A stretch of 64,000 nucleotides of DNA from an uncultured archaeon (lineage in GTDB: Archaea > Iainarchaeota > Iainarchaeia > Iainarchaeales > VGJJ01): the NCBI GenBank assembly GCA_964427715.1, contig CAYRUV010000001.1, positions 124,125 to 188,124 of the forward strand, in the 5' to 3' direction. Made by a program: the position numbers and the translations under genes. A model generated the notes under the pieces. It had not been told where the DNA came from. It made no database searches and saw only the letters and a list, made by a program, of their open reading frames with translations. Below, piece by piece: positions 21,948-57,122 of this stretch. Each line of letters opens with the position of its first letter. Position 1 is the stretch's first letter.

Positions 21948-22021
21948 TGCACCGGAGAGGATTTGAACCTCTGACCTCCCGATTATCAGTCGGGTGCTCT
22001 ACCAGGCTAAGCTACCAGTGC
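21948..22021 (-). tRNA. tRNA-Ile(GAT)
   Basis: Cloverleaf GCACTGG/CCGGTGC-A, anticodon arm CCCGA-CT GAT AA-TCGGG, T loop TTCAAAT; no intron, no CCA. Confidence 0.95.
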
Positions 22022-22048
22022 AACCTTTTGCGAAAAGGTTGATCAAAA
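22021..22048. repeat. CTTTT-N3/4-AAAAG hairpin element, copy A (abuts the tRNA-Ile 5' end)
   Basis: CAACCTTTT-GCG-AAAAGGTTG perfect 9-bp stem followed by ATCAAAA. Confidence 0.65.
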
Positions 22049-22156
22049 GCGTTAGAATCCCCTACGGGAATTCAGACTCTCCTAATCCCTTTTTGCTTCC
22101 AAGAAAACGGCCTCCGAATCCTTTTAAAGGGCACCTTGCGGGGGCGGTCCTATAAT

Positions 22157-22173
22157 GGCTTTTGTCAAAAGGG
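22157..22173. repeat. hairpin element, copy B (between the TATA box and the dus start)
   Basis: CTTTTGTCAAAAG (22159-22171) is identical to 53429-53441. Confidence 0.55.
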
Positions 22174-22178
22174 ATGGT

Positions 22179-23120
22179 ATGAAGACCACTTACGCGGGAT
22201 TGAAACTCTCCTCCCCGGCCGTATTGGCCCCCATGTCAGGGGTTTCGACGCTCCCTTTTCGTCTCCTATGTAAAGAATTGGGGGCGGGGTTGACGTACAC
22301 GGAATTTGCCTCGGCAATTGCCATCGCGAGAAACCTGGAAGGGAGAGCCTCCAACAACAAGGTATTCAATCGCATCGAAACGGTAAAAGAAGAACACCCG
22401 GTGGGTGTGCAACTGTTTGCCCCGCAGGAAAAGGATTTGATTACCGCAATTGAATTTGTGGAGAAAAACTTTGATTTGGTGGACATTAATTTCGGATGTC
22501 CCTCTCCCAAAATCACCGGCGGGGGATGCGGCGCCTATTTGTTGAAGAATCCGGAGAAGATGATTTCATTAATTGAAGCCGCCGTGTCGGTGTCGAAGAA
22601 ACCAGTTACGTGTAAAGTGAGAATGGGGTGGGACAAGCCCGTATTGCATGAGTTTGTAAGGAAAATTGAGAATGCGGGAGTGAAGGGAATTGCCTTGCAT
22701 GCGCGCACCGCCCAACAAGGGTATTCGGGCAAAGCGGATTGGGAGTATATTCGTCAAATCAAGGAATTAATTTCCATTCCCCTGATTGGAAATGGGGACA
22801 TTGCCTCGGTGCAGGATGTGAAGGATAAGCTGGATCAAAAGTATTGTGATTTGGTCATGATTGGTCGTTCCGCGTGGAACAATCCTGGGATTTTCTCCGA
22901 GATTGCCGGGAAGGACGTTCCAACTAAGGTGGAGATTGTGGAGCGCTACTTCAAACTCTGCGCCAAGTACCCCATTACGGAGTTATTGGACGTAAAGGCC
23001 CAGATTTCGGGTATCTTCTCGGGTTTACCCAACGTGAAGAAGCTGAGAGTGGCCTTAAATCAGGCCAAAGATTTAAGTCAGGTGGAAGCGGTAGTGGTAG
23101 CAGGGTTGTCGGACCAATAA
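22179..23120 (+). CDS. dus: tRNA-dihydrouridine synthase
   Basis: LAPMSG, YTEF, VQLF, DINFGCP, CGAYLL, KVRMG, LHART, GNGDI, MIGR. Confidence 0.9.
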   Translation: MKTTYAGLKLSSPAVLAPMSGVSTLPFRLLCKELGAGLTYTEFASAIAIARNLEGRASNNKVFNRIETVKEEHPVGVQLFAPQEKDLITAIEFVEKNFDLVDINFGCPSPKITGGGCGAYLLKNPEKMISLIEAAVSVSKKPVTCKVRMGWDKPVLHEFVRKIENAGVKGIALHARTAQQGYSGKADWEYIRQIKELISIPLIGNGDIASVQDVKDKLDQKYCDLVMIGRSAWNNPGIFSEIAGKDVPTKVEIVERYFKLCAKYPITELLDVKAQISGIFSGLPNVKKLRVALNQAKDLSQVEAVVVAGLSDQ

Positions 23121-23135
23121 AAGGGGGAATTACCA

Positions 23136-23771
23136 GTGGAAGCCTACAAGAAGGAGACCATTTTCACGTACGACTCGAACGTCGCCGGGTTTGAAAAAAA
23201 GTTTCAAGATAATTTTGAGAAGTATGGTCGCGAGGACCTTGAACGGTTTATTTCCAATCTAAAGGGGGGAAAGGTCGTGGATATCGGATGCGGCCCGGGC
23301 GTGTATTTAGAAGCCATGCGCGAAGCGGGGCTGGATGCCATGGGCATCGATTTGTCCGAGTCTTTCATTGAGCGTTGCCACGAGAAAGGATTGAATGTTC
23401 GGAAGATGGATATGGAGAATCCCCTGTTGTATCCTCATTCGTTTGACGGGTTGTGGGCTCATGCCGTGTTGCCACATGTTCCACGTGAACGCGTTGCGGC
23501 TCTTCTTCAAACGTGGACGCGTCTCCTCAAGCGAGACGGATTGCTCTGGCTTTCTCTTCGCGAGGGAGAAGGGGAAGGATTTGACGCGGATGCGTCCAAC
23601 ACCGACCGCAAGCGCTGGTTGACTTTCTACACGGATGAGGAAGTGCGAAAATTAGTGGGAAAACGATTCGAAGTAATTCATTTTGAACAGACGGATCGAA
23701 GCGGGAAAAAATACTTGAAGTATTTGCTCCGTCTCAAGCCCGAAGCCCCTAAGGCGTTTCGTAATTTTTGA
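23136..23771 (+). CDS. class I SAM-dependent methyltransferase (paralog 1)
   Basis: VVDIGCGPG, GIDLS, FDGLWAHAVLPH. Confidence 0.85.
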   Translation: MEAYKKETIFTYDSNVAGFEKKFQDNFEKYGREDLERFISNLKGGKVVDIGCGPGVYLEAMREAGLDAMGIDLSESFIERCHEKGLNVRKMDMENPLLYPHSFDGLWAHAVLPHVPRERVAALLQTWTRLLKRDGLLWLSLREGEGEGFDADASNTDRKRWLTFYTDEEVRKLVGKRFEVIHFEQTDRSGKKYLKYLLRLKPEAPKAFRNF

Positions 23772-23781
23772 AGAGGGGGAA

Positions 23782-23979
23782 TTATTTCCCTCCTTCCTCT
23801 TTCTTGGCCGGAACCTCTCGAATAATCTCGCGAATAATTTCTCTCGGACGAGGGGCCGGACTATCTTCGGGCCAGGCCGATTCCAGAACAACGACGGAAA
23901 CCATGGGTACGTTACAGTGGGCTCCCGGAAACTTGGACAGGAATCCGCAGGCGTGGCACATGAACGCGTCTTTGTACAT
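23782..23979 (-). CDS. small protein with a putative Zn-binding motif
   Basis: CHAC...HCNVPM and a REII-REII-RE repeat. Confidence 0.5.
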   Translation of the reverse strand: MYKDAFMCHACGFLSKFPGAHCNVPMVSVVVLESAWPEDSPAPRPREIIREIIREVPAKKEEGGK

Positions 23980-24088
23980 GCGACTCTCCTGCTAGGATAG
24001 ATAGGTATGCGTCCTACCTTCCGTATAAGGATTCCCTCTGGTAACGAGTAAATGGAAGGGAACCGCCGAATAATGGTTCGTTTTTCTC

Positions 24089-24466
24089 TTAGAGGTCAAA
24101 TCCAATCAAGAGGGTGGCTTCGTCTCCCTCGACGCGTACTTTTTTGGCCAAATACGTGTGCACGGCCAATCCAGGAGAGGAGGACACCACATTCTTGGCC
24201 GGCACTTCGGGGAAAACCACTGGAGGAAAAACTATTTCCCCGTTTTCTTTTTTCACAATCGTTTGCGTGGGCTCTCTCCACGAGGAATCGTGGACTAAAC
24301 ACACGCAGTATTTTCGCTTCACCGCTTCGTGCACACCCAAGTTATTTTCGTCTTCTTCCCTTTTGACGAAGGAATGATCGTCGGGCGTGAGGACGTAGAG
24401 GCGGGTAATCCCCTGAAGCTTTCCCAGCTGGTGGAGGATGTGCTTGATGGGTTTCTCGTCCGACAT
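24089..24466 (-). CDS. hypothetical protein
   Basis: 125-aa ORF with protein-like composition filling the gap between the MTase paralogs. Confidence 0.65.
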   Translation of the reverse strand: MSDEKPIKHILHQLGKLQGITRLYVLTPDDHSFVKREEDENNLGVHEAVKRKYCVCLVHDSSWREPTQTIVKKENGEIVFPPVVFPEVPAKNVVSSSPGLAVHTYLAKKVRVEGDEATLLIGFDL

Positions 24467-24501
24467 ACGGGTATTTACGCTCCAGAATCCTAATATAGGG
24501 T

Positions 24502-25125
24502 ATGCCCCCCACCGGGAAAAAGAAGGGATACAAGGACACGAACAAGAAAGCGTATGATTCGAAGGCCGATGCGATTGAGCGATTGTATCAGAAGCACTTC
24601 TCGCACGTGAAGCCGTTCGCCCAGGATTTTCTTAGGCATCTTCCGGGGAAAACCGTGATTGATTTGGGAGCGGGTCCCGGGACGCATGCACACTATTTCT
24701 ATGAGCGGGGATTAGACGTCATGTGCGTGGATTATTCCAAGGAAATGCTCCGCCGCTGCGCCAACAAGGGAGTGAAAGCGCTGTTGATGGACATTGAGGA
24801 CTTTTGGATGCCCGATAAGACCGTGGATGGAATTTGGATGTATTCCTCGCTTTTACACATCAAGGATGAGAACATTCCGGCGGTGGTGCGCAACTTGGCC
24901 CGGATGCTCAAGCCGAATGGGGTGTTGGGATTAGCCGTGAGAGAGGGAGAGAAAGATGGATTTGATACTGACCCGCTCGGCGTGAAACGCTGGTTTAATT
25001 TTTTCACCGATGAGGAGATCCGCGGGCACTTTTCTCCCTATTTTGATGTGGTGGACTACACGCGCAGCGAATATGGAAAAGGGGATGTTTTCCTGAATTA
25101 TTTATTTCGCCGGAAATACCATTAG
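24502..25125 (+). CDS. class I SAM-dependent methyltransferase (paralog 2)
   Basis: VIDLGAGPG, CVDYS, VDGIWMYSSLLH; colinear with 23136..23771. Confidence 0.85.
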   Translation: MPPTGKKKGYKDTNKKAYDSKADAIERLYQKHFSHVKPFAQDFLRHLPGKTVIDLGAGPGTHAHYFYERGLDVMCVDYSKEMLRRCANKGVKALLMDIEDFWMPDKTVDGIWMYSSLLHIKDENIPAVVRNLARMLKPNGVLGLAVREGEKDGFDTDPLGVKRWFNFFTDEEIRGHFSPYFDVVDYTRSEYGKGDVFLNYLFRRKYH

Positions 25126-26876
25126 AGGGATTTTAGTTCCTTGAGCTGGTGCTCCAATAGTTTGAATCCGCTTTCCCAGCTTTTTTTCTTCGTGGGATCG
25201 AATCCCATTTCGTTGAGCATTTTTTCAGGATTCTTGCTCCCGCCGTATGCGAGGAATTTTTCATAGTCCTTCACGAAGTCCTTTCCCTCTTTCTGGTAGC
25301 GCGCGTAGAAATTCAACACGAGCAAATGACCAAATGCGTAGGCGTATGTGTAGAAGGGTGCTTGAAAAAAGTGAGAAATACCCAACCATTCGTATTGGAA
25401 TTCTTCTGGGATGTGCATCTTTTTTCCAAACTGTACGCGGAGGTTTTGCTGGTAGGCCTGGTTGATTTCAGGGATGGTTTTTCCTTCCTTGACCATTTCA
25501 AACGCTTCTTTTTCAAAGAGGGTGAAAAAGGATTGTCGCTGGATGCTGGCGAATGCCTCATCCATCTGCTTGGCGAGCATATGTTTTCGGAACGTGGGGG
25601 AGGAATCGTTTTCCAAGAGGTGCGCATCTAATAGTATCTCCCCAAACGTAGATGCGGTCTCGGCGAGAGGCAGCCCAGCATGTTGGGTGAAGATGGAGTG
25701 AGAGGATGAATAATGATTATGAATCGCGTGTCCTAATTCGTGGGCGATCGTAGAGACGCTCTTTAGGTCCCCGGTCCAGTTCAACAATACGTAGCTGGTA
25801 TCTTTGGGAGTCGTGATGGTGCAAAAAGCACCTCCTCGTTTTCCTTTTCGTAAGCGTGCGTCCATTCGTTTATCTTTCAAAACGCGATGAGCTTCCTCTT
25901 TCATGCGGGGGGAGAATGATTCATAGGCGTTCATCACATGCGCATACCCTTCCTTGAATTCCCATTTTTTCTTGGGCGGGTGGAGGGGGGCATAGATGTG
26001 ATAGCGTGAGTTAGGATTTCCCAACTCCTTGGCCTTCCACTCGAAGTAGGATTGAAATACGTTCGTGTTTTGCTCGCACACGCGCAGGAAAGTATCAACT
26101 GTCTCATCGGAAAGATCATTGGCAAGGTTTCGAATAGATAGAGGAGAATCGTATTTTCTCAAGTAAATGTCTTCGTTCCACCAGTCTTGGGCGATGTTTT
26201 TGTAGATTTCTCCCAATGCCCCTGAATCTTTTCCAAATCGCTCCCATAAGAGTGAATAGGCTTGTTTTCGCTCCTCCGGATGGGGACTTTGTACCTTGGC
26301 TCGGAGTTCTTCCTCGTTGAGCGTGCGGGTGGTCTTTCCTGCTTTCCATTCGAATGTGTAGTCGCCCGTGAGAATATCATAGAGTTTTGTGAGGGCCGAG
26401 TTTCCCGTGGAGGATTTGAGGTTGGAGAGTTGTTCTTCTTTCTCCGAGAGCATGTGCTTGGAATACTTTCTCGATTCCATTAACGCGTACGCGTGATCCT
26501 TGTTCCTGGGTAATAGTTTTCGGGCGGTCTTTTCATCGAGTCCCTTCCACCATAATCCGAAAAAGAGTCGCTGATTCCCTTCGCGTGTGAGGATATTCTC
26601 AAGGCGCGACTCTAATGCTTTGGCTTTTTCATCCTGCGTGTTTTGGGCGAACGCGAGCATGGCATAGGTTGAGAGGGTGTGTGTTTTCTCGGCGAACCAT
26701 TCATTTTCGCGCAGGATTTCCTCCACTAACTCTCGTGTAGGGTGTTCGAGTTTTTTTCGGTAGGAGAGATACTTCTTCGTTTGAGCCTGAATAGCATTTA
26801 CGTCCCTCTGGATGTCCTTCTCGGTGGAATAGATGGGTCTCAAATCCCACTCGGGGAGGTTTTGGGAGGTACTCAT
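25122..26876 (-). CDS. pepF: oligoendopeptidase F (M3B)
   Basis: WDLRPIY, GKRGGAFC, HELGH, LAETASTFGE, FYTYAYAFG. Confidence 0.9.
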   Translation of the reverse strand: MSTSQNLPEWDLRPIYSTEKDIQRDVNAIQAQTKKYLSYRKKLEHPTRELVEEILRENEWFAEKTHTLSTYAMLAFAQNTQDEKAKALESRLENILTREGNQRLFFGLWWKGLDEKTARKLLPRNKDHAYALMESRKYSKHMLSEKEEQLSNLKSSTGNSALTKLYDILTGDYTFEWKAGKTTRTLNEEELRAKVQSPHPEERKQAYSLLWERFGKDSGALGEIYKNIAQDWWNEDIYLRKYDSPLSIRNLANDLSDETVDTFLRVCEQNTNVFQSYFEWKAKELGNPNSRYHIYAPLHPPKKKWEFKEGYAHVMNAYESFSPRMKEEAHRVLKDKRMDARLRKGKRGGAFCTITTPKDTSYVLLNWTGDLKSVSTIAHELGHAIHNHYSSSHSIFTQHAGLPLAETASTFGEILLDAHLLENDSSPTFRKHMLAKQMDEAFASIQRQSFFTLFEKEAFEMVKEGKTIPEINQAYQQNLRVQFGKKMHIPEEFQYEWLGISHFFQAPFYTYAYAFGHLLVLNFYARYQKEGKDFVKDYEKFLAYGGSKNPEKMLNEMGFDPTKKKSWESGFKLLEHQLKELKSL

Positions 26877-26918
26877 ACGCTGGAGAGAATGAAAAACGGG
26901 TTATATAGGTGTGGGTGG

Positions 26919-28676
26919 CTAGTTGGGCGTCCCGTTGCCCTGCTGTTCTCTCCAGAAGGCATAATACAATCCTTTCTTCCGCACGAGTTGAGCGTGGGAT
27001 CCTTCCTCTACAATATGTCCCTTTTCCAGCACGTAGATGGTGTCCGCATGCGTTAAGGTGGAGAGGCGGTGGGCGATCAATACAAAGATGACCTCGGGTC
27101 GGCTCTTTTTCAATTCTTGAATGGTTTCTGTAATTGATTTTTCCGTTAAGGAATCTAACGCACTCGTGGCCTCATCGAAGATCAAAATATCCGGATTGCG
27201 TAAGAGCGCGCGGGCAATCGCTAAGCGTTGCTTTTCTCCCCCGGAGAGTTTGATTCCGCCTTCTCCAATCTTGTTGTCCAATCCTTTCTCTCCTCTCGTG
27301 ATGAGGTGGTCCGCTCGTGCGTGTTGCAAGGCTTCCTTCATCTCTTTCTCGGTGGCGCGGGGATTTACGAATAATAGGTTTTCACGAATGGTGCCTGCGA
27401 ACAATTGCGTCTCTTGGGCGACAATTCCAATGCGCTTACGCAGGGCTTCCGCGTCCACCTTTTTCACATCAATTCCATTCACTAAAATCTTTCCATTCGT
27501 GGGTTGATAGAGTCCCGTGAGGAGCTTGATGAGGGTGGACTTTCCGCTTCCGCTCGCACCCGCAAATGCCACGGTTTCCCCGGCCCCAATCTCAAGAGAT
27601 ATCTCTTTCACGGAGGGGATTTGGTTGGATGAATAATGGAATGACACGTTTTCGTATTGGATCGTCTTAATCTTCGACAAGGGAGTGGGGTTTTTTGGTT
27701 TTGTTTGAGGAGGGAGTGTGAGAATCTCATCTAAGGATTCCAATGAGGCCTTGGCTTCCTGGTAGCGCTGGGCCACCGTTCCCAATTCCGCGAGAGGTCC
27801 AAATATGAAGAAGGAGTAGAATAGCAGGGAGAATAGTGATCCTAAGGTCATCTCGGAGTTGAAAACTAACCAGAGCATCAATCCCAACAATCCGGTGCGG
27901 AGGGCATTGATTAATGTGCCCTGCACGAAAGCGAGTAATCGCACTAAGCGGACTTTTCGCAGTTCAAGTCCCAGGATTTTTTCATTCACTTGGTTGAGTC
28001 GTCCTATTTCTTGGGATTCCAATCCCATGCTTTTTACCAATTCCACGTTTCGAATGGTTTCCGTGGTGCTTCCCGCGAGCTCGGCGGACTCTGATACAAT
28101 GGCCTTTTGGGCGGCTTTGATTCGGGAGCTTAGCACGTAGGTGATGATTCCAATCATGGGCATCATGAGCAAGTACGCCAGAGCAACGGCCCAGTGGACC
28201 GTAAACGCGTAAATCAAAACGAAGACAATTCCCACAAGGGAGAAGAACATCGTCCCAATCATGATCTCAATGAATCCCTGCATGTCCGTGCGGGCCTTCT
28301 GCAACTTTTGGAGGATTTCACCGGAACGTCGGTCCTCGAACACTTCGTAAGGAAGCGAGAATGTGTGCTCCACACTTCGAGAGTACATTTCCGTTCCCAC
28401 ACGCTGCGTAATCACATTCACGAAGTATTCTTGGAACGTCTTCGCGGTGCGGGAAACAAACGCCACGGCCATGCTTCCGATGAGTAAGAGGGTAACTCCC
28501 TGCAAGAATTGGTCGGTGGTCAACTGTCCCACTTTCGTGGCGTAATCGTCGATGATGAACCGAAAAATGAGGGGGTCCATCAGGGAGAATATTTGGTTGA
28601 TTCCTGCGAGAAAGAGCGCTAACGCAATGGTCTTCTTGTGGTTGCGGAGGAACTTCCATCCCGGGATCATGTTCAT
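26919..28676 (-). CDS. ABC exporter, fused TMD-NBD (MsbA-like)
   Basis: Six TM; GASGSGKST, LSGGEKQR, LIFDEATSALD, IAHRLST. Confidence 0.92.
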   Translation of the reverse strand: MNMIPGWKFLRNHKKTIALALFLAGINQIFSLMDPLIFRFIIDDYATKVGQLTTDQFLQGVTLLLIGSMAVAFVSRTAKTFQEYFVNVITQRVGTEMYSRSVEHTFSLPYEVFEDRRSGEILQKLQKARTDMQGFIEIMIGTMFFSLVGIVFVLIYAFTVHWAVALAYLLMMPMIGIITYVLSSRIKAAQKAIVSESAELAGSTTETIRNVELVKSMGLESQEIGRLNQVNEKILGLELRKVRLVRLLAFVQGTLINALRTGLLGLMLWLVFNSEMTLGSLFSLLFYSFFIFGPLAELGTVAQRYQEAKASLESLDEILTLPPQTKPKNPTPLSKIKTIQYENVSFHYSSNQIPSVKEISLEIGAGETVAFAGASGSGKSTLIKLLTGLYQPTNGKILVNGIDVKKVDAEALRKRIGIVAQETQLFAGTIRENLLFVNPRATEKEMKEALQHARADHLITRGEKGLDNKIGEGGIKLSGGEKQRLAIARALLRNPDILIFDEATSALDSLTEKSITETIQELKKSRPEVIFVLIAHRLSTLTHADTIYVLEKGHIVEEGSHAQLVRKKGLYYAFWREQQGNGTPN

Positions 28677-28784
28677 GTATCTATCGGGTGTCCGATGGGT
28701 TTTTATGGGATAATGGGGGTCCCGCGAACTACGCCCCGTATTAAGTCCAACGTCCCTAATGCGTGCGTACGGGAGGAATGAAAT

Positions 28785-29159
28785 ATGGCCGGATACGCTG
28801 GAAACATCGAATCATTGACTCAACATAATACATTTTTTCGGAGGGTGCTTTTCACCGCCAAGCACATGCAATTAGTGGTCATGTCCCTCGCTCCAAACGA
28901 GGAAATTGGACTTGAAACCCACTCGGATACGGACCAATTCATCCGCGTGGAAGCGGGGGAAGGGAAATGCAAGATTGGGGACTCGGAACACGTGTTGAAA
29001 GATGGAGTTGCCGTGGTAATCCCGGCGGGGCATGCGCACAACGTGTGGAACACGTCCTCTACACACGCATTGAAACTCTACACCATCTACACGCCCCCCG
29101 AGCACAAGGATGGGACCATTCACAAAACCAAATTGGACGCCGAAAAAGACCATCATTGA
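28785..29159 (+). CDS. cupin-domain protein
   Basis: EIGLETH..TDQFIRVEAG, IPAGHAHNV, LKLYTIY.PPEH. Confidence 0.85.
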   Translation: MAGYAGNIESLTQHNTFFRRVLFTAKHMQLVVMSLAPNEEIGLETHSDTDQFIRVEAGEGKCKIGDSEHVLKDGVAVVIPAGHAHNVWNTSSTHALKLYTIYTPPEHKDGTIHKTKLDAEKDHH

Positions 29160-29200
29160 AGAATGAATACCGATAAAAGGGAGGAATTGTTTCCTTCCTC

Positions 29201-29449
29201 ATGTATTTTGTTTATCTATTAGAGTGTGCGGATCGCACGCTGTATTGCGGCTTTACCACGGATTTAGTCAAACGGGTCGCGTGGCACAATGCGGGGAAGG
29301 CGAGTAAGTATACGCGCGCTCGTTTGCCGGTGAAACTAGTCTATTCCGAATCCTACGCATTGCGCACGGACGCGTTGAAGCGCGAGTATGCGATCAAGCG
29401 GATGCCTAGAGAAGAGAAATGGGAACTCGTGAAGAGTTCCAAGAAATAA
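29201..29449 (+). CDS. GIY-YIG nuclease family protein (UPF0213-like)
   Basis: YFVYLLECAD.TLYCGFT.D...R...HN.G..SKYTR, ALKREYAIK. Confidence 0.88.
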   Translation: MYFVYLLECADRTLYCGFTTDLVKRVAWHNAGKASKYTRARLPVKLVYSESYALRTDALKREYAIKRMPREEKWELVKSSKK

Positions 29450-49661: not shown

Positions 49662-50441
49662 ATGGCCTACTGGGTGGATTTTCACACGCACATCCTGGAT
49701 TCCCCAGACCTCTCCTCGATTGAGCGGGATAGCAAGGCCCAAAACGTCAATGCGTGGCTAGTGAACAGCGTGGATTTGGAGAACCACGCCCTCCTTTCTA
49801 AAAACCCCCCCTCTTTCCCCTCGGCCATCGTGGGGGTGGGGTGGCACCCGGAGCAGGTGATTGAGGTCGTTGAGAGTCGCATTCCTTCCATCCTGAAAAA
49901 GTTTGAACCGCTCGTGAAGAAGGCCCCTTACTTGGGAGAAACCGGGTTGGATTTTTTGTATGGGAAGACACCTGAACATCAAACCGCCCAAAAGAAAGTA
50001 TTTGCTCAATTCGTGGATTGGGCGAGTGAGTACGAGAAACTCATTGAGGTTCACACGCGCCATGCCAAGCAAGAATCGTTGGATTTGCTCGCGGACAAGA
50101 ATGCGGAGCGCGTAATCCTTCACTGGTTCTCAGGCAATCAAAAGCAACAGAAGCTGATTATTTCACGCAAGTGGGTGGTGACGGTGGGCCCCACCATCTT
50201 AAATTCTCCCCACATGAATCACTTTATCGAGCGGCAGCCCTTGGAGTTGTTAGGACTTGAAACGGACTCTCCCATTCCCTTCGATGGAACCCCTTCATCC
50301 CCTGCGTGGATTCCAAAAGTTGCGCGTCGGGTGGCGGAAATCAAAGGGGTTTCCCTGCGTGAGGTCAACGAGGCCCAATCCTCTATCTTTTCCCGCTTCT
50401 TTCCCGGTTTTCCTATAAACCCTTTTGGGGGAAAAGAATAG
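49662..50441 (+). CDS. tatD: TatD-family metal-dependent nuclease
   Basis: DFHTH, GWHPE, LGETGLDF, VHTR, ILHWFSG, ETDSP. Confidence 0.88.
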   Translation: MAYWVDFHTHILDSPDLSSIERDSKAQNVNAWLVNSVDLENHALLSKNPPSFPSAIVGVGWHPEQVIEVVESRIPSILKKFEPLVKKAPYLGETGLDFLYGKTPEHQTAQKKVFAQFVDWASEYEKLIEVHTRHAKQESLDLLADKNAERVILHWFSGNQKQQKLIISRKWVVTVGPTILNSPHMNHFIERQPLELLGLETDSPIPFDGTPSSPAWIPKVARRVAEIKGVSLREVNEAQSSIFSRFFPGFPINPFGGKE

Positions 50442-50442
50442 T

Positions 50443-50745
50443 ATGTCGACCCTCACCATCATTCTCACGGTTGGAGTTGTCCTCCTCGTGGGGTTAAACC
50501 TCTTGGCGTCGATTCTTCCTCGGAAGCAAAAAGTCCAGGTGACCTTTATTCCTCCCTCCGCGGTCCCCGTGAATAGTCCCGAGATGCCTGCGCGGAACGA
50601 GGGGGCATTGGCCGCCATCAACACGAAGATTGCCCAATTATTCTCCCGCGTGGAGGAGTTGGAACTCCGCATGCAGAGCATGGAGTCTCCCTCCATGAAC
50701 GAGTCCGAGTGGATTGAGACCGTTCCCGTGCGGAAGAGAAAGTAA
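50443..50745 (+). CDS. small single-TM coiled-coil protein
   Basis: N-terminal TM, then a heptad INTKIAQLFSRVEELE. Confidence 0.6.
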   Translation: MSTLTIILTVGVVLLVGLNLLASILPRKQKVQVTFIPPSAVPVNSPEMPARNEGALAAINTKIAQLFSRVEELELRMQSMESPSMNESEWIETVPVRKRK

Positions 50746-50762
50746 ACCCGGTTGTGTCACGT

Positions 50763-51356
50763 ATGGCTGAGAATAATCCCCCCATGATGGATGAAGAGAA
50801 TCCGTATTCCATTTCTCCCATGCAGTGTCACCAGTGCCACAAGCAGGCGTCCCTGGTTCAGGTCACGGAAACCATTCCCTTGTTTGGAAAACTGTTGATG
50901 CAAACCCTCTCGTGCTCTCACTGCGGATTCAAGTGGTCCGATGCGATGAGTTTAGAGTTCCGTGAACCCTGTGCGTATGAGGCTCACATTCGAAGTGAGA
51001 AGGACATGCACATCAAGATTGTAAGGAACTCCTCGGGGACGATTGAGATTCCAGAATTGGGGGTGTTGTTGGAACCCGGTCCCTTTGCGGAGGGATTCTT
51101 CACCAACATTGAGGGTTTTTTGGAACGTGTAGAGGGTGTGCTGCGCGTCTTCGTGAATGGGGGGACTCCTGAACAAAAAAAGGCCGCCCAGTCTCGTATT
51201 GAAGAGTTGGAAAAGTGTCGCTCGGGAAAGATGCCCTTTACCATTATCGTGAAGGATCCCTTCGGTGGAAGCGCGCTGATTGGCCATGGTGTGACGCGTC
51301 AATCCTTGAAGGACGAAGAGGCAAAGAGCTTGAAGAAAGGAGTTAGTCTGGGCTAG
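50763..51356 (+). CDS. ZPR1-type zinc finger protein
   Basis: CHQC...IPLFG...CSHCGF, IPELG..LEPG, TNIEGFLER, DPFGGS. Confidence 0.9.
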   Translation: MAENNPPMMDEENPYSISPMQCHQCHKQASLVQVTETIPLFGKLLMQTLSCSHCGFKWSDAMSLEFREPCAYEAHIRSEKDMHIKIVRNSSGTIEIPELGVLLEPGPFAEGFFTNIEGFLERVEGVLRVFVNGGTPEQKKAAQSRIEELEKCRSGKMPFTIIVKDPFGGSALIGHGVTRQSLKDEEAKSLKKGVSLG

Positions 51357-51366
51357 TATTTCTATC

Positions 51367-51930
51367 TCACTTCTTTTTTTTCCGGGATACATTAATCATG
51401 GAGCGGGTCCTTTCTTCCAATTCTTTCGGATCGTTGAGTACGCGAATCATCTCCTCTTCGACCTGTTTGTAGCTTCGGATGACCCTTTCTAGAGGGGTGA
51501 TTCTCTTCCGTTCTTCAGCGACCGTCAGGGGCGTCTTCTCCACACTCATGTGGTGGCGGAGCATGCTCTTGTACATCTCCATCCGGTGTAGTTTGAGTTC
51601 CATCTGGAATATTTCTTTGGCGACAGGAATCATGTGGCGCACCATCGCGTCATCGACGAACTTGCTTTCTCTGGCTTGCCGAGAGAATAACATCTGTCGT
51701 GTGTCTTGTTCGTTGGCTATATTTTCCAATGCATGTTCGTACTCCATGGTGCGCTTGGCATACCATGCGAGCTTGTGCGCTCGAGTCATTATCACAGGGG
51801 GGGATATTCGCATGAAGCGAAATAATGGCATGGCTCGTGCGTCCACTTTCTCGGGCGCCTTGGCTGCCAGCCTTAATTTGATTTGATTGGCCGGCCTAAT
51901 CATTCTTTGATTTCCACGTCTTTCGCTCAT
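51367..51930 (-). CDS. basic Arg/Met-rich hypothetical protein
   Basis: Long helical ORF with no recognisable family motif; start uncertain (51948/51930/51903). Confidence 0.6.
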   Translation of the reverse strand: MSERRGNQRMIRPANQIKLRLAAKAPEKVDARAMPLFRFMRISPPVIMTRAHKLAWYAKRTMEYEHALENIANEQDTRQMLFSRQARESKFVDDAMVRHMIPVAKEIFQMELKLHRMEMYKSMLRHHMSVEKTPLTVAEERKRITPLERVIRSYKQVEEEMIRVLNDPKELEERTRSMINVSRKKKK

Positions 51931-52594
51931 TCGTGTCTCCACTCTCATTTCGCGTGTGTTTGGCGATGATGCTGGCCGCGCTCACGCTGGGCTCGATATC
52001 GTCGGCTTTTTCTTGGAATACAATTCCCTTCATTCCTTTTCTCAATGGTTTTCCGTCCATCAATGTCATGCTTTCGGGTGAGAGTTTTTCTTTGAGTGAG
52101 TGGAAAGCCAGTGCGATTTCCGCTTGGATGTCATTCATCGTGAGTCCTTTTTTTCGCAGCTCATCTATCATGCGTGCGCTCACGGATACGCGCATATCAA
52201 TCAGTGCATGTTGCGTGGCTTCTTGGTAGTGCTTGGCAATGTTGCTCGTTTTTTTTGAGTCGCGTAGTCCGCGCAACGCGTTTCGCGGTCCTAACACTCC
52301 TCCCACCACTAAGGGTCCTGTCTTCTCTCCGCGTCCCACTTCATCAATCCCAAACACCCGTTCGTCGTTTTCTTTTTCCATCCAGGAGAGGAGTTTTTCC
52401 TTGACGGCTTTCTCCACTTCCGCGTGTTTGGCGGCAATGACGATTTTTCCGGAGGTGTACACCGTCACCACGCTATCCCCCACTTTGTGTCGGGCTTTTT
52501 CGTACTGTGAGGGGGTTGGTAGGGAGGGATATTTGTCCAGCTCCTTGAGTACGGTCTTGGTTTCTTGGGGGGTGAAGGATAGGGTCACGACCAT
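51896..52594 (-). CDS. rnhB: type 2 ribonuclease H with HIII-like (TBP-like) N-terminal domain and short C-terminus
   Basis: YEKARHKVGDSVVTVYTSGKIVI; GIDEVGRGE, DSKK, MDG, KADD..PSVSAASIIAK. Confidence 0.8.
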   Translation of the reverse strand: MVVTLSFTPQETKTVLKELDKYPSLPTPSQYEKARHKVGDSVVTVYTSGKIVIAAKHAEVEKAVKEKLLSWMEKENDERVFGIDEVGRGEKTGPLVVGGVLGPRNALRGLRDSKKTSNIAKHYQEATQHALIDMRVSVSARMIDELRKKGLTMNDIQAEIALAFHSLKEKLSPESMTLMDGKPLRKGMKGIVFQEKADDIEPSVSAASIIAKHTRNESGDTNERKTWKSKND

Positions 52595-52652
52595 GGGAGG
52601 GACGACCCCTCCTGAGTATTTAATGGTCTTCCGTTGCGAGAAGAAAAAGTTC

Positions 52653-52712
52653 GGGTCAGACGTGAGTTAATTCATCATCCTTGCGTCAGTCGGGGTTTAC
52701 GTCATCATTCCC
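52653..52712 (-). ncRNA. box C/D guide sRNA
   Basis: GGGA-ATGATGA(C)-CGTAAACCCCGA-CTGA(D')-CGCAAGG-ATGATGA(C')-ATTAACTCACGT-CTGA(D)-CCC: four perfect boxes, two 12-nt guides, terminal stem. Confidence 0.9.
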
Positions 52713-52742
52713 ACCTAGTAGGGGGAGGGAGACTTCTAAAAG

Positions 52743-53039
52743 CTAATCAAATGGGCGCGTGACCGAAACATAGGATAGGATGGCGGCCAGGGAGAGGTTC
52801 ACAATCAATGCGGCGGCGAGGATGGGTTTGAACTCGCTGAAGGCTTGAGCGTTGTATTGGAGCGTCTCGAGCATGGTGGATAGGCAGTATGCGAAGGCCT
52901 GGAGCATTCCAAACGAGAGGATAATCCAATAGGCACGGCTCTCTCCCGCGTGGGGAATCGATTTCCATGCGAATCGGAACGCGAAGAGGAATGCCACGGC
53001 TCCAATGGCATCCATGATAGGGATGAGGTCATACATCAT
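52743..53039 (-). CDS. small 3-TM membrane protein
   Basis: Three hydrophobic helices; 1-nt overlap with the upstream 3-TM gene. Confidence 0.6.
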   Translation of the reverse strand: MMYDLIPIMDAIGAVAFLFAFRFAWKSIPHAGESRAYWIILSFGMLQAFAYCLSTMLETLQYNAQAFSEFKPILAAALIVNLSLAAILSYVSVTRPFD

Positions 53040-53344
53040 TATTTCTCCCTCGATAATCGTTCCATTTTCTTGCGCATGAACTGTTGTCCTTCATAGTTGC
53101 GCTGGGTCCAATACAGGAAGAGGACTCCTCCTCCTAGAATTCCGACGAGGTGATAGAGAATGTGAAAGGACTCGTTCCAGGTCATCAGCCAGATGTTTTG
53201 GGAAATGATTCCTATCACAATGGCGGTGAATCCGAAAAAGAATATTTTGGATGAGCGGGAGGCTCGATAATCCAGGATAGCCGGGATATACCCTAGCACC
53301 GCGAAGAGCAATACCAATAATTCCGCGAAGGGAAGGGGGTTCAT
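53039..53344 (-). CDS. small 3-TM membrane protein
   Basis: Three hydrophobic helices, basic tail; TTTTTTATA promoter upstream. Confidence 0.6.
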   Translation of the reverse strand: MNPLPFAELLVLLFAVLGYIPAILDYRASRSSKIFFFGFTAIVIGIISQNIWLMTWNESFHILYHLVGILGGGVLFLYWTQRNYEGQQFMRKKMERLSREK

Positions 53345-53402
53345 CTTTTCATCCAGCGAATCGACCTATAAAAAAGTGTTCCATTCCAATTCAAAAAAAT
53401 GA

Positions 53403-53455
53403 ATGCGCGGGGCAGGATAGGTACCGGCCTTTTGTCAAAAGCCCCTGGAAAAGGA
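53403..53455 (-). repeat. duplicated tRNA-Leu(CAG) 3' end plus hairpin element copy C
   Basis: 53403-53418 matches 53461-53476 at 15/16 nt; the spacer holds CCTTTT-GTC-AAAAG. Confidence 0.7.
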
Positions 53456-53461
53456 ATTCCA

Positions 53462-53545
53462 TGCACGGGGCAGGATTTGAACCTACGAAGGCACTAAGCC
53501 ACCAGGACCTGAACCTGGCCCCTTAGACCGCTTGGGTACCCGTGC
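53462..53545 (-). tRNA. tRNA-Leu(CAG)
   Basis: GCACGGG/CCCGTGC-A; CCAGG-TT CAG GT-CCTGG; long variable arm. Confidence 0.95.
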
Positions 53546-53584
53546 GTGAAGGGATTAGTGGGAAACAAGTCATATAAAGGGTGT

Positions 53585-54166
53585 TCAGGCCCACTCGATT
53601 TTGATCACATGGAGTGCTTCAAAGGATAGTTTGAGGTAAGAAACCACCTTCGTTTTGAAGTGTCGTTTGTGGAGGGCCGTTTGGATATTCTCAATTCCAT
53701 TCAGGGAAGACACGAGCAAGAGACACATGCCCTTCTCCCCCAAGTGTTTGGGGAATTGCGACATGAATCGGTTGATGACTTCCCTGCCTTCCTCTCCTCC
53801 ATCCACCTCCATCCATTTGAGTTCATCGGAAGGAACGTAGGGGGGGTTGAACACCATCACGTCAAATTTTCCCTTGATTCCCTCGAATAAGTTTCCAAGG
53901 GTGCATTGCGTGTGGGCATGAGCAAAATAGGTCTCAATCATTTTTTGGGTAGTGCGTATCGCCGCGGGGTTAAGATCGATGGCATGCACGCTCTCGGCGC
54001 CGCCCAACAATAATGCAGCGGTCTGGATGCCGCTTCCGCATCCCATGTCTAGGCATTTCTTCCCGCGCACGTTTTCGTTTTCGATGGCATGGGCCAATAG
54101 CCAGGAGTCATCACTCGGCGCATACCCTTCGTCGGGCTTCTTGAATCGGATTGTTTCCAACTTCAT
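53585..54166 (-). CDS. HemK2/PrmC-type protein-glutamine N5-methyltransferase
   Basis: YAPSDDSWLL, LDMGCGSG, IDLNP, FNPPY, DGGEEGREVI. Confidence 0.88.
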   Translation of the reverse strand: MKLETIRFKKPDEGYAPSDDSWLLAHAIENENVRGKKCLDMGCGSGIQTAALLLGGAESVHAIDLNPAAIRTTQKMIETYFAHAHTQCTLGNLFEGIKGKFDVMVFNPPYVPSDELKWMEVDGGEEGREVINRFMSQFPKHLGEKGMCLLLVSSLNGIENIQTALHKRHFKTKVVSYLKLSFEALHVIKIEWA

Positions 54167-54276
54167 TATGTTATAGTGGCGTAAATCAACGCATTTAAAT
54201 GAATTCATTTTCACTCAGGGTGCGTTCCAGAAAATGAAAATAATCGACGCAAAAACCTCCCAATAGGTGTACCTCG

Positions 54277-54588
54277 ATGAATGTTAGTGCCTTATTTCAC
54301 ACAGCCTCCGCTCGGATTGAAGAGAAGATATACGGAATCCAAGTGGGATTATCCGTGTATGTTGGACTCGTGAGAGCCTCCATCCAAGAAAAGATTCCCC
54401 TGCTCCAAAATCACGTTTGGGCCGCAGTGGGGATTTCATTTTTCGTCGTCTTGGCGATTCAATCCATTATTTTGATCTTGTCGTTGTTCACATTCCTTGT
54501 GAATGGGACCATGGGTCTTTCTCGATTGGTGGTGAAGTTCACAAAAGATACCATCCGTGTGGTTCAACCCCTGCGTGCGGTTCGTTGA
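54277..54588 (+). CDS. hypothetical membrane protein
   Basis: One long hydrophobic segment; fills an intergenic gap. Confidence 0.45.
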   Translation: MNVSALFHTASARIEEKIYGIQVGLSVYVGLVRASIQEKIPLLQNHVWAAVGISFFVVLAIQSIILILSLFTFLVNGTMGLSRLVVKFTKDTIRVVQPLRAVR

Positions 54589-54629
54589 TTAAGAATATCT
54601 TAAAATAGTCAAAATGGCGCTATGCGTGA

Positions 54630-54977
54630 ATGCCCTCTCCCATACGCAAAACTACTCCTGCAGTAGCCCGCCAGTATCTTGAGATGCTTTCCCGCGATCC
54701 TCCTAAAGTCACGAGTAGTATGAGGGTCGTGATTCAAATCGTGCGTGGTATTCGCGATGGGACGATTCTTCCGGCAGATATGCGTGGTCGTGTAGACTCA
54801 TATCGGGAGGTGCTGCAGGATCCCGTTTTGAGGGCAGCGGTATATCGCGTCCTCGACAAGCGTGCACAGAGGGGGGCGATGCAGGTGGATAAGTGGAGGG
54901 TTGGTTTCAGGATAAATGGATCGAGGGCGCCCAACGGGGGTCGCCGTCGACCTCCTTCGAAGTTTCGTTCTCGATAA
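54630..54977 (+). CDS. basic Arg-rich hypothetical protein
   Basis: 115 aa; TTAAAA about 25 nt upstream of the ATG. Confidence 0.55.
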   Translation: MPSPIRKTTPAVARQYLEMLSRDPPKVTSSMRVVIQIVRGIRDGTILPADMRGRVDSYREVLQDPVLRAAVYRVLDKRAQRGAMQVDKWRVGFRINGSRAPNGGRRRPPSKFRSR

Positions 54978-54988
54978 TAGTAATATTA

Positions 54989-55062
54989 CGCCGGTGCGGG
55001 GATTTGAACCCCGGTCGAGAGCTTCGGAAGCTCTAATGCTATCCAGGCTACACCACACCGGC
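54989..55062 (-). tRNA. tRNA-Arg(CCG)
   Basis: GCCGGTG/CACCGGC-G; AGAGC-TT CCG AA-GCTCT. Confidence 0.95.
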
Positions 55063-55079
55063 TGACTTTTTTTTAGAAA

Positions 55080-55163
55080 TGCAGGAAGGAGGATTCGAAC
55101 CTCCGAAGGCACTAAGCCAATAGGGCCTAAACCTATCCCCTTAGACCGCTTGGGTATTCCTGC
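55080..55163 (-). tRNA. tRNA-Leu(TAG)
   Basis: GCAGGAA/TTCCTGC-A; ATAGG-TT TAG GC-CCTAT; long variable arm; tandem with tRNA-Arg. Confidence 0.95.
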
Positions 55164-55217
55164 GTGCTAGTATGCGTGCGCGGATGCCCATAAAAACCCG
55201 GCTTTTCTTTTCCATGG

Positions 55218-55847
55218 GTGAATCGCACCATCAAGCTATTGCTTATCGCCGACGTCTTCACCACTACGGGTTTTGGTCTCATCGAGCCCATTCTCGCTAT
55301 CTACATCAATGGTACTCTTACCGGTGGATCATTGGTGGCGGCGGGACTGGCGAGTACGTTATTCCTCATCACCAAGTCGGCCGTCCAGTTGCCCTTTTCT
55401 CGCTACGTGGATGCGCATGATCACAAAATTAAGTGGTTGTTAGTCGGGACATTCATCATTTCATTAGTCCCATTCCTCTACATCTACGCCACGGATGTGA
55501 TGCATTGGTTCTTGGCGCAAATCCTATATGGAATCGGTGCCGGACTCGCGTATCCCACGTGGTTATCCTTATGGTCCACGCACCTGGACAAAAAACATGA
55601 AGGGTATGAGTGGAGTCTCTATTCAACGTCCGTGGGAATCATGATGGCCATCACCGCAACGCTAGGGGCGGTTCTCGCGGAAAGCGTGGGGTATCAATGG
55701 ACCTTCATCAGTGTAGGTTTCCTTTCCCTGGTTGGATGTGGTATTTTATTATTCCTTGAAGAAAAGGCGGAAAAGAAATCCCGACCGGTTCCGTGGGCAC
55801 ATTATCATTCTCACAAAAAAGCCAATCCGGGGGATCGACACGGGTAG
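55218..55847 (+). CDS. half-size (6 TM) MFS-like membrane protein
   Basis: Motif-A-like SRYVDAHDHK, about 6 TM, stop after the sixth helix; His-rich tail. Confidence 0.75.
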   Translation: MNRTIKLLLIADVFTTTGFGLIEPILAIYINGTLTGGSLVAAGLASTLFLITKSAVQLPFSRYVDAHDHKIKWLLVGTFIISLVPFLYIYATDVMHWFLAQILYGIGAGLAYPTWLSLWSTHLDKKHEGYEWSLYSTSVGIMMAITATLGAVLAESVGYQWTFISVGFLSLVGCGILLFLEEKAEKKSRPVPWAHYHSHKKANPGDRHG

Positions 55848-55866
55848 TTATCAGAATTGAAAACTA

Positions 55867-56844
55867 CTAGTCTCGTTCTTGCTTGATTAGGTCGCCGAAG
55901 TTAATGCGTTCGGGTGGATTTTCTTCAATGTCTTCCCGCAATCCCTTTTCTCCGTCGCTGTCTGCTGACCACTTTCTGGGTTGGGGTTCCGGCCGCCCGG
56001 ATAATTTGGAGTTGGACGGAACACCCTTGAAGAGTGAATCCAGTGTTCCCTCAAAAAAGGGCGTGCTGTTTCCGGGAGAAGAACCGAAAGAGGAATTGGA
56101 TTGTCCGCGGAAGAAAAAGAAAAGCAACCCCACTACGATCAATGCGCCCACTCCTAACAAGGGAAGATTTCCCCCGCTAACGAGACCAGTCCCATTCAGG
56201 AAGGGGATGTTGAATCCCTGTTGGTCGGTTTGCGTTAACATCGAGGGTTCGGGCTTCTCAATAATATCCAAGCGATTGGTCACGTCATTCAGTGCCGTTT
56301 GTGTGGTTTCTTTTACGGAGGATAACTCGGATTGGGTCTCGTAGACTTTTTGCTCGGTGGTGGTAGTAAATGTCTCCAACTCCTCCACGCGCGTCGAGAG
56401 GGTGGTCATGCTCGCGTCGAGGGATTCCTTCTCACTCGCGTCTAATGCATCCATCACGTTGAGGGTGACGGTTTGTTTTTCCGACTTGGGTCCTTGCGTC
56501 TGCACTTCAATGAGGTGGGGTCCCTTGGCGAACCCTGTATGTGTGACAATGGCGGTTAATCCCTCATTCGTTTTGGGATCCGCATCCCATGTGGCGCAGT
56601 GGATGATGAAGGGAATCCACTCGGGTTGTACTGCGCATGTCCCCGTAGGGTATACGGTGGCCACGAGGATGTTATCGAAGTGAATCGTCGCGGTGTTGAA
56701 CGCATCCGTCGCAGGAAGGGTGGCGCGGAATGTGAAGGGGGCGAATGTTTGCATCTTCTCCGGAGACTGTATCTCGAGCGCGAATGCGTGCGTGGAAAAT
56801 AATGCCAATGTGATGAGAATGAGGAGTTTGTTGAGGGTCTTCAT
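55867..56844 (-). CDS. exported Ig-like plus coiled-coil protein with TM anchor and cytoplasmic tail
   Basis: Signal peptide MKTLNKLLILITLALFSTHAFA, Cys pair, heptad region, TM LLGVGALIVVGLLFFFF. Confidence 0.7.
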   Translation of the reverse strand: MKTLNKLLILITLALFSTHAFALEIQSPEKMQTFAPFTFRATLPATDAFNTATIHFDNILVATVYPTGTCAVQPEWIPFIIHCATWDADPKTNEGLTAIVTHTGFAKGPHLIEVQTQGPKSEKQTVTLNVMDALDASEKESLDASMTTLSTRVEELETFTTTTEQKVYETQSELSSVKETTQTALNDVTNRLDIIEKPEPSMLTQTDQQGFNIPFLNGTGLVSGGNLPLLGVGALIVVGLLFFFFRGQSNSSFGSSPGNSTPFFEGTLDSLFKGVPSNSKLSGRPEPQPRKWSADSDGEKGLREDIEENPPERINFGDLIKQERD

Positions 56845-56964
56845 GGTCGTCATTATTCCTTTTTGCATATTTAAGGAAGGGCGGTTCGTGCGCTACATAA
56901 GAAGCAGAGCGGAGTTCATAATGCCCGTTTTTAAGGCTATTTTGGTGGTTTTTGAGTAATAGCC

Positions 56965-57036
56965 AGGCCCGTAGTGTAACGGCTATCACGGGGCATTCAC
57001 ACTGCCCAGACGGCAGTTCAACTCTGCCCGGGCCTA
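56965..57036 (+). tRNA. tRNA-Val(CAC)
   Basis: AGGCCCG/CGGGCCT-A; GGGCA-TT CAC AC-TGCCC; GGCAG-TTCAACT-CTGCC. Confidence 0.92.
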
Positions 57037-57060
57037 TTGTGGAATGAGCAAATCCATTTA

Positions 57061-57122
57061 GCTTTTTTTTCGGTCGAGCCTTTTCTCTAAAAGGGTCGGT
57101 TCCGATTCTGCCCGGGCCTATT
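57061..57122 (+). repeat. hairpin element copy D plus duplicated tRNA-Val 3' end
   Basis: TCTGCCCGGGCCTATT at 57023-57038 repeated exactly at 57107-57122; CCTTTT-CTCT-AAAAGG at 57079-57094. Confidence 0.75.

Follow-up and report, generated by a model that had tools for sequence, protein, structure and literature searches.

A recurrent hairpin at tRNA genes of an uncultured archaeon of the Iainarchaeales, a candidate small insertion element

The DNA analysed here (the window, 64,000 nucleotides) corresponds to positions 124125-188124 of contig C1 of an uncultured archaeon of the Iainarchaeales and carries nine tRNA genes, three of which adjoin a short hairpin of the form CTTTT-N3/4-AAAAG. The genome (G000) is an 898-kb assembly of 19 contigs with 43 tRNAs and a completeness of 85.6%. 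Related genomes are designated G001-G018; the genus set comprises 17 genomes including G000, and the closest to G000 is G011 (88-97% identity). tRNAs were located with ARAGORN, whereas open reading frames (ORFs) in the relatives are crude calls made in this analysis. The hairpin motif has four matches in the window (22025-22037, 22159-22171, 53429-53441 and 57080-57093) as compared with 0.22 expected in shuffled sequence, and four matches were reached in none of 100 shuffles. The original prediction had described the motif as recurrent and had placed its copies at base G1 of tRNA-Ile, on the 3' sides of two tRNAs and in the dus leader; this was correct in the window, as was the layout proposed for three of the copies (T-run, 6-8 nt, hairpin, in tRNA sense). 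The fold energies of the single hairpins are unexceptional (z-scores of -0.7 to -2.0); the support for a family comes from recurrence, covariation and comparative data.

The gene for tRNA-Ile(GAU) is located on the minus strand (21947-22021) and is directly preceded by the core element on the same strand (22021-22048). The latter consists of TTTT (22048-22045), GAT (22044-22042) and the hairpin CAACCTTTT-CGC-AAAAGGTTG (22041-22021) with a predicted stem of 9 bp, whose final G is at the same time base G1 of the tRNA. This element is kept in G011 and is present, variant or absent in the 16 congeners. Upstream of it, the tRNA leader contains a further part of a longer form (22049-22105, minus strand; far boundary approximate), with TAACGC (22054-22049) and a GC-rich hairpin, hairpin 1, GAATTCCC-GTA-GGGGATTC (22073-22055), whose pairing is retained in G008, G003, G005, G012 and G009 despite a different sequence. 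An upstream arm (AAAAAGGGAUUAGGAG) is able to pair with CUUUUGAUCAACCUUUU. The whole 87-nt leader folds at -29.5 kcal/mol (z-score -3.2), with the upstream arm predicted to pair with the T-run and GAUC region. The conserved TATA box of this tRNA, CCTTTTAAAGGG (22120-22131, minus strand), lies ~100 nt upstream of G1 in G000.

The other two copies follow tRNA genes. Downstream of tRNA-Leu(CAG) there is a 58-nt insertion (53404-53461, minus strand) composed of TGGAATTCC, TTTT, CCAGGGG, the hairpin CTTTTGACAAAAG (53441-53429), GCCGGTACCT and finally ATCCTGCCCCGCGCA (53418-53404), a 15-nt duplicate of the 3' end of that tRNA; the hairpin starts 21 nt past the tRNA 3' end. The insertion downstream of tRNA-Val(CAC) (57039-57122, plus strand) comprises a 24-nt spacer, a run of eight T (57063-57070), CGGTCGAG, the hairpin CCTTTTCTCTAAAAGG (57079-57094), GTCGGTTCCGAT and TCTGCCCGGGCCTATT (57107-57122), which is an exact 16-nt duplicate of 57023-57038. 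Here, the hairpin lies 44 nt past the tRNA, and a stem extension GGTC/GACC is predicted.

The fourth match, the palindrome GGCTTTTGTCAAAAGGG in the dus leader (22157-22173, plus strand), does not belong to the family, contrary to the original prediction. It stands after the dus TATA box CCTATAATGG (22149-22158) and ahead of the true start codon of the gene (22180), has neither the T-run nor the GRTCRAN part and folds weakly (-2.9 kcal/mol, z-score -0.2); relatives carry GGCTAAAAGGG at this position. As the palindrome is counted as a look-alike, its exact 13-mer match to the tRNA-Leu(CAG) copy (CTTTTGTCAAAAG, indeed identical in the two, as predicted) is probably a coincidence. Note that tRNA-Ile and dus are divergent and ~130 nt apart (22120-22180), with the palindromic TATA box CCTTTTAAAGGG serving the tRNA side. 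The position of CCTATAATGG ~26 nt ahead of the dus ATG suggests that the dus mRNA may be leaderless. The program-called start of the dus ORF (22155) is probably wrong; Dus proteins of congeners start with MK(Y/T)TYAGLKL.

Throughout G000, the unit reads, in tRNA sense, T4-8, GRTCRAN (GGTCGAG, GGTCAAG or GATCAAC) and then the hairpin with the CTTTT/AAAAG base. A strict pattern for it finds 10 sites in this genome and none in the reversed control; with diverged copies counted, there are 14 members. Eleven of the 14 are within 45 nt of a tRNA, all of them co-oriented with it (P ~1e-23 for the bias genome-wide, 3e-13 in non-coding DNA alone and 5e-4 for the co-orientation alone). Two contexts can be distinguished, both of them in leaders and trailers rather than introns. 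On the 5' side, the hairpin abuts the tRNA as AAAAGGTT immediately followed by G1 (Ile-GAU, Ala-GGC, Leu-GAG, Ser-GGA). On the 3' side, the unit is found 10-45 nt past the tRNA end and is directly followed by a copy of the last 15-20 nt of the tRNA (Leu-CAG, Val-CAC, Leu-CAA, Lys-UUU, Leu-GAG, Ala-UGC); Arg-CCU has the unit without the duplicate. The proposed tie to tRNA loci thus stands for G000 and is genome-dependent, since only 3 of 31 copies in G003 are near a tRNA. Outside the family, two further observations concern tRNA genes. The genes for tRNA-Leu(UAG) and tRNA-Arg(CCG) (window 54989-55163) are arranged head to tail, 17 nt apart (TTTCTAAAAAAAAGTCA), with no hairpin element between them, and are probably co-transcribed. 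Furthermore, ARAGORN reports a tRNA-Ile with the anticodon TAT outside the window (G000:C1:194109-194183); this anticodon is uncommon in archaea.

The anatomy of the element could be refined with 81 distinct copies from G000 and the related genomes. The stem runs five pairs past the T4/A4 base and covaries at three positions (A-T/C-G 49/14, A-T/G-C 59/10, C-G/G-C 52/14), with a pairing of 0.79-0.89 as compared with 0.56-0.75 in shuffles, and the TTTTGAT flank is conserved and unpaired. A short form of ~30 nt contains the unpaired T-run and GAT followed by an A/T-based hairpin of 9-12 bp; a long form of ~65-90 nt has in addition an upstream GC-rich hairpin of variable sequence and then T(A/C)ACGC. 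The right end of the element is precise (GTTYG, its last G being tRNA base 1 at 5' sites), and the left end is variable. The stretch between hairpin and duplicate resembles a scrambled T-loop (e.g., GGTTCNNNATC). It is common to duplicates of different tRNAs (GGTTCTGTATC at Ala-UGC of G000 and Ser-UGA of G011; GGTTCCGA at Val of G000 and Arg-CCU of G011) and therefore belongs to the element and not to the tRNA. In an Rfam search, only tRNA matches passed and no family covered the element, and a literature search with the core sequence returned unrelated primer or barcode matches and nothing else. Apparently, this insertion-type family has not been described before.

Comparison with G011 reveals filled and empty versions of the same sites. 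At the 3' side of tRNA-Leu(CAG), G011 is empty, with CCCCGTGCA directly followed by TTCATTTTTTTG. In G000, 58 extra bases are present at this point (43 of the element and the 15-nt copy ATCCTGCCCCGCGCA), after which the flank continues as in G011. The 3' site of tRNA-Leu(GAG) is likewise empty in G011 and filled in G000, here with a duplication of ~40 nt that begins in the T-loop and takes in 19 nt of trailer. At tRNA-Lys(UUU) the element is absent on the 3' side in G011, with a less clean junction. The empty G011 3' sites already have a T-run of their own. The element has been gained or lost at orthologous sites in close relatives (Leu(CAG), Leu(GAG), Ile). The duplicates at 3' sites represent the last 15-40 nt of the target, begin in the T-loop and directly follow the right end of the element. 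Copies at the ends of protein genes are also flanked by repeats, of 19-32 nt (G000 C8:6441-6463; loci L001, L003 and L007). The right repeat begins 0-5 nt past the element and the left one ends 3-53 nt before the T-run, again indicating a precise right and a variable left end.

Just past the duplicate, the DNA of G000 and G011 is wholly different at tRNA-Val, tRNA-Arg(CCU) and tRNA-Ala(UGC), which are hot spots; at tRNA-Val, the two genomes share no related sequence between the tRNA 3' end and ~57520. In the window, the ~450 nt past the tRNA-Val duplicate up to the next conserved gene (57123-57522) have no counterpart at the G011 locus, where a different stretch of ~430 nt is found; this small variable island at a tRNA hot spot contains an ORF (57174-57506, plus strand) for a basic, coiled-coil-looking protein of 110 aa. 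A second subfamily of trailer inserts, TTTTGACTGGGCG(T)CTAC followed by TTTTCTTTTTCTC-AAAAAGAAAAGGAG, was observed after tRNA-Pro(UGG) in G000 (C3:23560-23640) and also in G002, G014 and G007 (loci L124, L123 and L011), followed in the relatives by a duplicate of the tRNA 3' end. At tRNA-Arg(CCU) of G007, an insert of this second subfamily stands in tandem with an element of the first type.

At the 5' sites, the promoter can be followed from genome to genome. Sixteen genus genomes have kept the tRNA-Ile TATA box (CTTTAAAAGCATTC) together with the beginning of the leader. The box lies ~30 nt from G1 where the element is missing (G002, G006, G016) and ~80-110 nt from it where the element is present, as the element stands between the short leader and G1 in ~10 of the 16 genomes, in several sequence variants. 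The element on the 5' side of tRNA-Leu(GAG) is placed in the same way, between promoter-side leader and tRNA, and is absent in G014. In G005, seven of the 22 copies sampled stand directly against a tRNA, each time a different one, and the terminal G of GTTYG is G1. When the genomes are taken together, the junction falls no more than 3 nt from +1 in at least 12 different tRNA species (chance ~1.7e-7 for an 11-nt leader). RNase P RNA is present in G000 (115.5 bits), and 5' leaders should therefore be removable. Its gene (G000:C5:15343-15597) is located 1.4 kb upstream of tRNA-Leu(GAG), which has elements on both sides.

The pattern is present in 15 of the 16 congeners (0 to ~57 pattern rows per genome) and in six other families of the order. 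Congeners have up to ~50 copies, which are mostly situated at the 3' ends of protein genes and in tandem arrays, and their unit is a fuller palindrome, TTTTGATCAAAC-TTTT-loop-AAAA-GTTTG(ATC), which often forms such arrays. The 31 copies of G003 were found in 400 kb. None of them lies between divergent genes, every intergenic copy faces at least one gene 3' end, and the orientation relative to the flanking genes is random (10 sense, 10 antisense).

Beyond the order, the exact core (27 nt, 25 specified bases) occurs in at least 119 public stretches, as compared with 0.005 expected by a uniform estimate. Among the matches listed are archaea (Ca. Iainarchaeum, Micrarchaeota, Woesearchaeota, Altiarchaeota, Methanosarcina and other Methanosarcinales, Methanocellales, Methanomicrobiales, Methanobrevibacter), bacteria (Oscillospiraceae including the isolate Acutalibacter sp. 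1XD8-33, other Clostridia, one metagenome-assembled genome (MAG) of Aminicenantes with more than 15 copies, Cloacimonadota) and two virus contigs. The bacterial copies are followed by GC-rich hairpins and have no tRNA nearby. In an archaeon of 26% GC, a tRNA-Leu is followed by a T-run, the hairpin and a duplicate with 20 of 21 matching positions, which is the layout found in G000. Furthermore, with introns allowed in ARAGORN, the core was found inside tRNA introns, namely a 43-nt intron at position 37 of tRNA-Ala(GGC) in a Micrarchaeota MAG (L164) and a 49-nt intron of tRNA-Lys(CUU) in a Methanocellales MAG (L161); further intron candidates were seen. That isolates from both domains (Acutalibacter, Methanosarcina, Methanobrevibacter) carry an identical core of 27 nt suggests horizontal spread or a shared recognising enzyme. 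Note also that perfect tandem arrays of the core with identical spacers exist, with periods of 83, 64 and 42 nt (L200, Methanosarcina sp. MSH10X1; L264; L016, G018:C3:66200-66800). As their spacers are invariant, these arrays are not CRISPR-like; they look like recent local amplification.

Taken together, we consider it reasonably likely that three of the four hairpins in the window are copies of a small non-coding insertion element that spreads in the manner outlined here. The element is placed in RNA that is transcribed but discarded: in tRNA leaders past the promoter, in tRNA trailers, at the 3' ends of protein genes and, in other phyla, in tRNA introns. It would spread as DNA, either with the help of a hairpin-recognising enzyme not encoded in the G000 assembly or because the element is captured during the repair of breaks. 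Once it has been taken up where a tRNA boundary is broken or nicked, its T-loop-like right end could pair with the T-loop of an intact tRNA copy and prime synthesis through the tRNA 3' end. Such a priming step would give the duplicate, its fixed left and variable right boundary and the bias to tRNAs; simple insertion at -1/+1 falls outside it. Copies would persist because RNase P, 3' trimming and splicing remove them from RNA, and the T-runs may add to termination past tRNAs.

Several observations weigh against this explanation, among them those from the search for a mobilising enzyme. The Y1 HUH transposase domain (PF01797) has no match in G000, in the copy-rich G003, in G012 or in G006. It was detected only in G001, G005 and G008, which is unrelated to copy number, and the end hairpins of those genes differ from the element. 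TnpB was not found, Cas1 (PF01867) is encoded only in G015 among the 17 genus genomes and is absent from G000, and none of the 17 encodes a reverse transcriptase (RVT_1). G000 has a single tyrosine recombinase (C2:102776-103264). Target duplications that are this long and vary in length match no DNA transposase known to us. A selfish repeat would not usually keep its core across the order and both domains, and such conservation could reflect a selected function. Moreover, the copies at tRNA-Leu(CAG) and tRNA-Leu(CAA) are paralogous, and there are thus fewer events than copies. Finally, the more distant G007 carries a diverged long form at the tRNA-Leu(CAG) site, and the empty site of G011 is therefore probably a secondary loss through recombination between the two repeats; gains are thus less directly shown than losses. 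As the G000 assembly is incomplete, a mobilising gene could be missing from it.

The original prediction had likened the element to the REP (repetitive extragenic palindrome) or MITE (miniature inverted-repeat transposable element) type and had proposed to look for a TnpA(REP)/HUH nuclease or integrase. In kind, the likeness is supported (dispersed short palindromes, an unpaired conserved 5' flank, a covarying stem, presence and absence, 0 to ~57 rows per genome), whereas the enzyme does not: nothing of this sort was detected in G000 beyond the single tyrosine recombinase, and no HUH nuclease in G003. The genes flanked by elements in G003 contain nothing transposase-like by eye (no Pfam search was made), and the Y1 genes of the core-bearing Aminicenantes and Methanosarcina genomes are not flanked by the core. 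Y1 HUH, TnpB and Cas1 were thus set aside as partners, being either not found or uncorrelated with copy number. We also considered tRNA-primed or other reverse transcription, which is suggested by the beginning of the duplicate just 3' of position 58. It is unlikely given the lack of RVT_1 in the genus set, and it is further disfavoured by a duplicate of a tRNA 5' end on the opposite strand in G003 and by the duplication of protein-gene ends.

A separate IS200-type family is present in the genus. The Y1 genes of G001, G005 and G008 have ends of the type GACTTCCTCC..GGCCTAAAGGCC..GGGTATCC (L039, G008:C96; L040, G001:C4). In G003, where this transposase is missing, gene-less, MITE-like copies of these ends are found (e.g., L018, G003:C3:181800-182300), and they often adjoin the hairpin elements.

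Three other explanations were weighed. According to one of them, the element is a selected cis signal and not mobile, that is, a two-way terminator or insulator (T-runs on both strands plus the hairpin) or a binding or processing site retained beside stable-RNA genes and gene ends, with copies arising by local duplication. Archaeal termination uses oligo-T, and the copies after tRNAs have runs of T4-T8. The arrangement in G003, with no copy between divergent genes and all intergenic copies facing a gene 3' end, would suit such a role, as would the tandem arrays between convergent genes, the covarying stem and the conservation of the core across families of the order and beyond. However, orthologous tRNAs do without the element (tRNA-Ile in G002, G006 and G016, tRNA-Leu(GAG) in G014, and the empty 3' sites of G011 with their own T-run), a terminator at the 5' sites would stand between promoter and tRNA, and the orientation relative to genes is random in G003. 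Besides, the target duplications, together with cores that are identical in unrelated phyla, speak for copying and not for convergence. We therefore regard a selected cis signal as unlikely, although it is the alternative to be taken most seriously. A role as promoter of the abutted tRNAs, with the T-run and GATC as a TATA-like box ~26 nt before G1 and leaderless transcripts, is in our view very improbable. Leaderless tRNA transcripts do occur in Nanoarchaeum, and at 5' sites the T-run begins 26-36 nt before G1, near the usual archaeal spacing between TATA box and start. Yet the box CTTTAAAAGCATTC and the first leader part are kept upstream of the element in 16 of 16 genomes, the spacing of ~30 nt being found only without the element. 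The element thus lies between a conserved promoter with its leader and tRNA base 1, and is not the promoter itself. Moreover, the distance from T-run to G1 varies by 10 nt where a fixed one would be required, TTTTGATC is a poor match to the TATA boxes of G000 (CTTTTTAAA, CTTTATAA), RNase P RNA is present, and the same hairpin unit is also found 3' of tRNAs and of protein genes. The promoter reading was rejected on these grounds.

Alternatively, the duplicates could be attL/attR scars of larger viruses or plasmids that integrate into tRNA genes with a tyrosine integrase, the hairpin being an element end left behind by internal deletion. Integrations of this type are recognised by direct repeats of tRNA 3' ends, and integration of SSV into the T-psi-C arm has been described (PMC4090602). 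The variable DNA past the duplicate at tRNA-Val, tRNA-Arg(CCU) and tRNA-Ala(UGC) in G000 and G011 and the extra integrases (430-480 aa) of several congeners would agree with this scenario. Nevertheless, only 43-60 nt separate the repeats in every case, and no third repeat bounds the variable DNA: a search for islands delimited in this way found none, and an apparent orphan tRNA-Ala 3' end (C2:81418) proved to be a chance match in a coding region. The repeats vary in length (15-40 nt) and can extend into the trailer; the same unit is carried by at least seven different tRNAs and several protein-gene ends, so that each element would need its own att copy; the 5' copies have no repeat; and G000 has just one tyrosine recombinase. 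Scars of this kind are accordingly an improbable source of the copies. Two further candidates were discarded. The CAAAC...GTTTG ends loosely resemble the RYYYAAC...GTTRRRY of integron attC sites, but the hairpin is too short, with no two-box layout and no cassette arrays (by judgement). An intrastrand triplex (Holder et al., PMC4666352) has little weight, as the arms are not homopurine/homopyrimidine beyond 4-5 nt.

One short, well-defined sequence occupies four settings, namely tRNA leaders, trailers with target duplications, introns (in other phyla) and protein-gene ends, with filled and empty sites between close relatives. The element is thereby a concrete object for the study of small-element mobility in archaea, with a bearing on the spread of mobile DNA and of tRNA introns. 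The mechanism by which archaeal tRNA introns are gained or transposed has been stated to be unknown (PMC4090602). As a speculation to which we give a low probability, the family may represent a mobile hairpin, shared by both domains, whose points of integration are the RNA-processing boundaries of stable-RNA genes (RNase P site, 3' end, T-loop, anticodon-loop intron site); it would integrate by means of its T-loop-like end homology or a structure-specific enzyme, and could provide raw material for archaeal tRNA introns and structured leaders. For annotation, it is relevant that the hairpin units give rise to false tRNA fragments and alter the distances at which promoters seem to lie.

Among known systems, insertion sequence (IS)-derived repeats resemble the element only in part. 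MITEs derived from IS differ from it in that it has an internal palindrome only, a variable left end and duplications of 15-40 nt, or none at 5' sites. In the PATE of the IS200/IS605 group, insertion takes place 3' of a fixed 4-5-nt target without duplication, and TTGAT before the hairpin resembles such a target motif; however, the T-run arrives with the insert in filled/empty pairs, duplications are present and there is no TnpA/TnpB. Casposons use Cas1 and leave a 14-15-bp duplication at a tRNA 3' end, whereas Cas1 is limited here to G015 among the 17 genomes and the duplications measure 15-40 nt. Target-primed (LINE/SINE-like) insertion gives a similar outcome, with a precise 3' end at the duplication, a variable or truncated 5' end and duplications of 15-40 nt, but RVT_1 is absent from the genus set and the element has no A-tail. 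Correia/NEMIS and ERIC sequences are also small structured repeats that are co-transcribed with their neighbours and tolerated in untranslated regions; they end in inverted repeats, make short duplications of fixed length (TA for Correia) and can be traced to known parent IS families, none of which is seen here. SSV-type and other tyrosine-integrase elements share with our case the direct repeat of the tRNA 3' part from the T-psi-C arm and the adjoining variable hot spot; they differ from it in the 43-60 nt between the repeats, the lack of integrase and cargo, the variable repeat length and the many tRNA and non-tRNA targets.

In the REP, BIME and REPIN sequences of bacteria, as in the element described here, a short extragenic palindrome has a covarying stem and, on its 5' side, a flank that is conserved and unpaired. 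Both number in the tens per genome, are found in clusters and at the 3' ends of genes, and differ widely in copy number between close relatives. REPs are, however, mobilised by RAYT (TnpA-REP, HUH-Y1), and neither G000 nor G003 encodes a RAYT/Y1 protein; clusters are here direct tandem arrays and not inverted doublets, and the long target duplications, the precise tRNA boundaries, the archaeal host and the cross-domain core set the element further apart. A comparable choice of sites is known from the transposed tRNA introns of Thermoproteales, which, in the part of PMC4090602 that deals with Fujishima et al. 2010, appear as one sequence family in many tRNA genes with a mechanism that is unknown. 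On that account, the core in introns of different tRNAs of Micrarchaeota and Methanocellales is of the same kind, whereas in G000 the element occupies leaders and trailers, and the family extends to the ends of protein genes and to bacteria.

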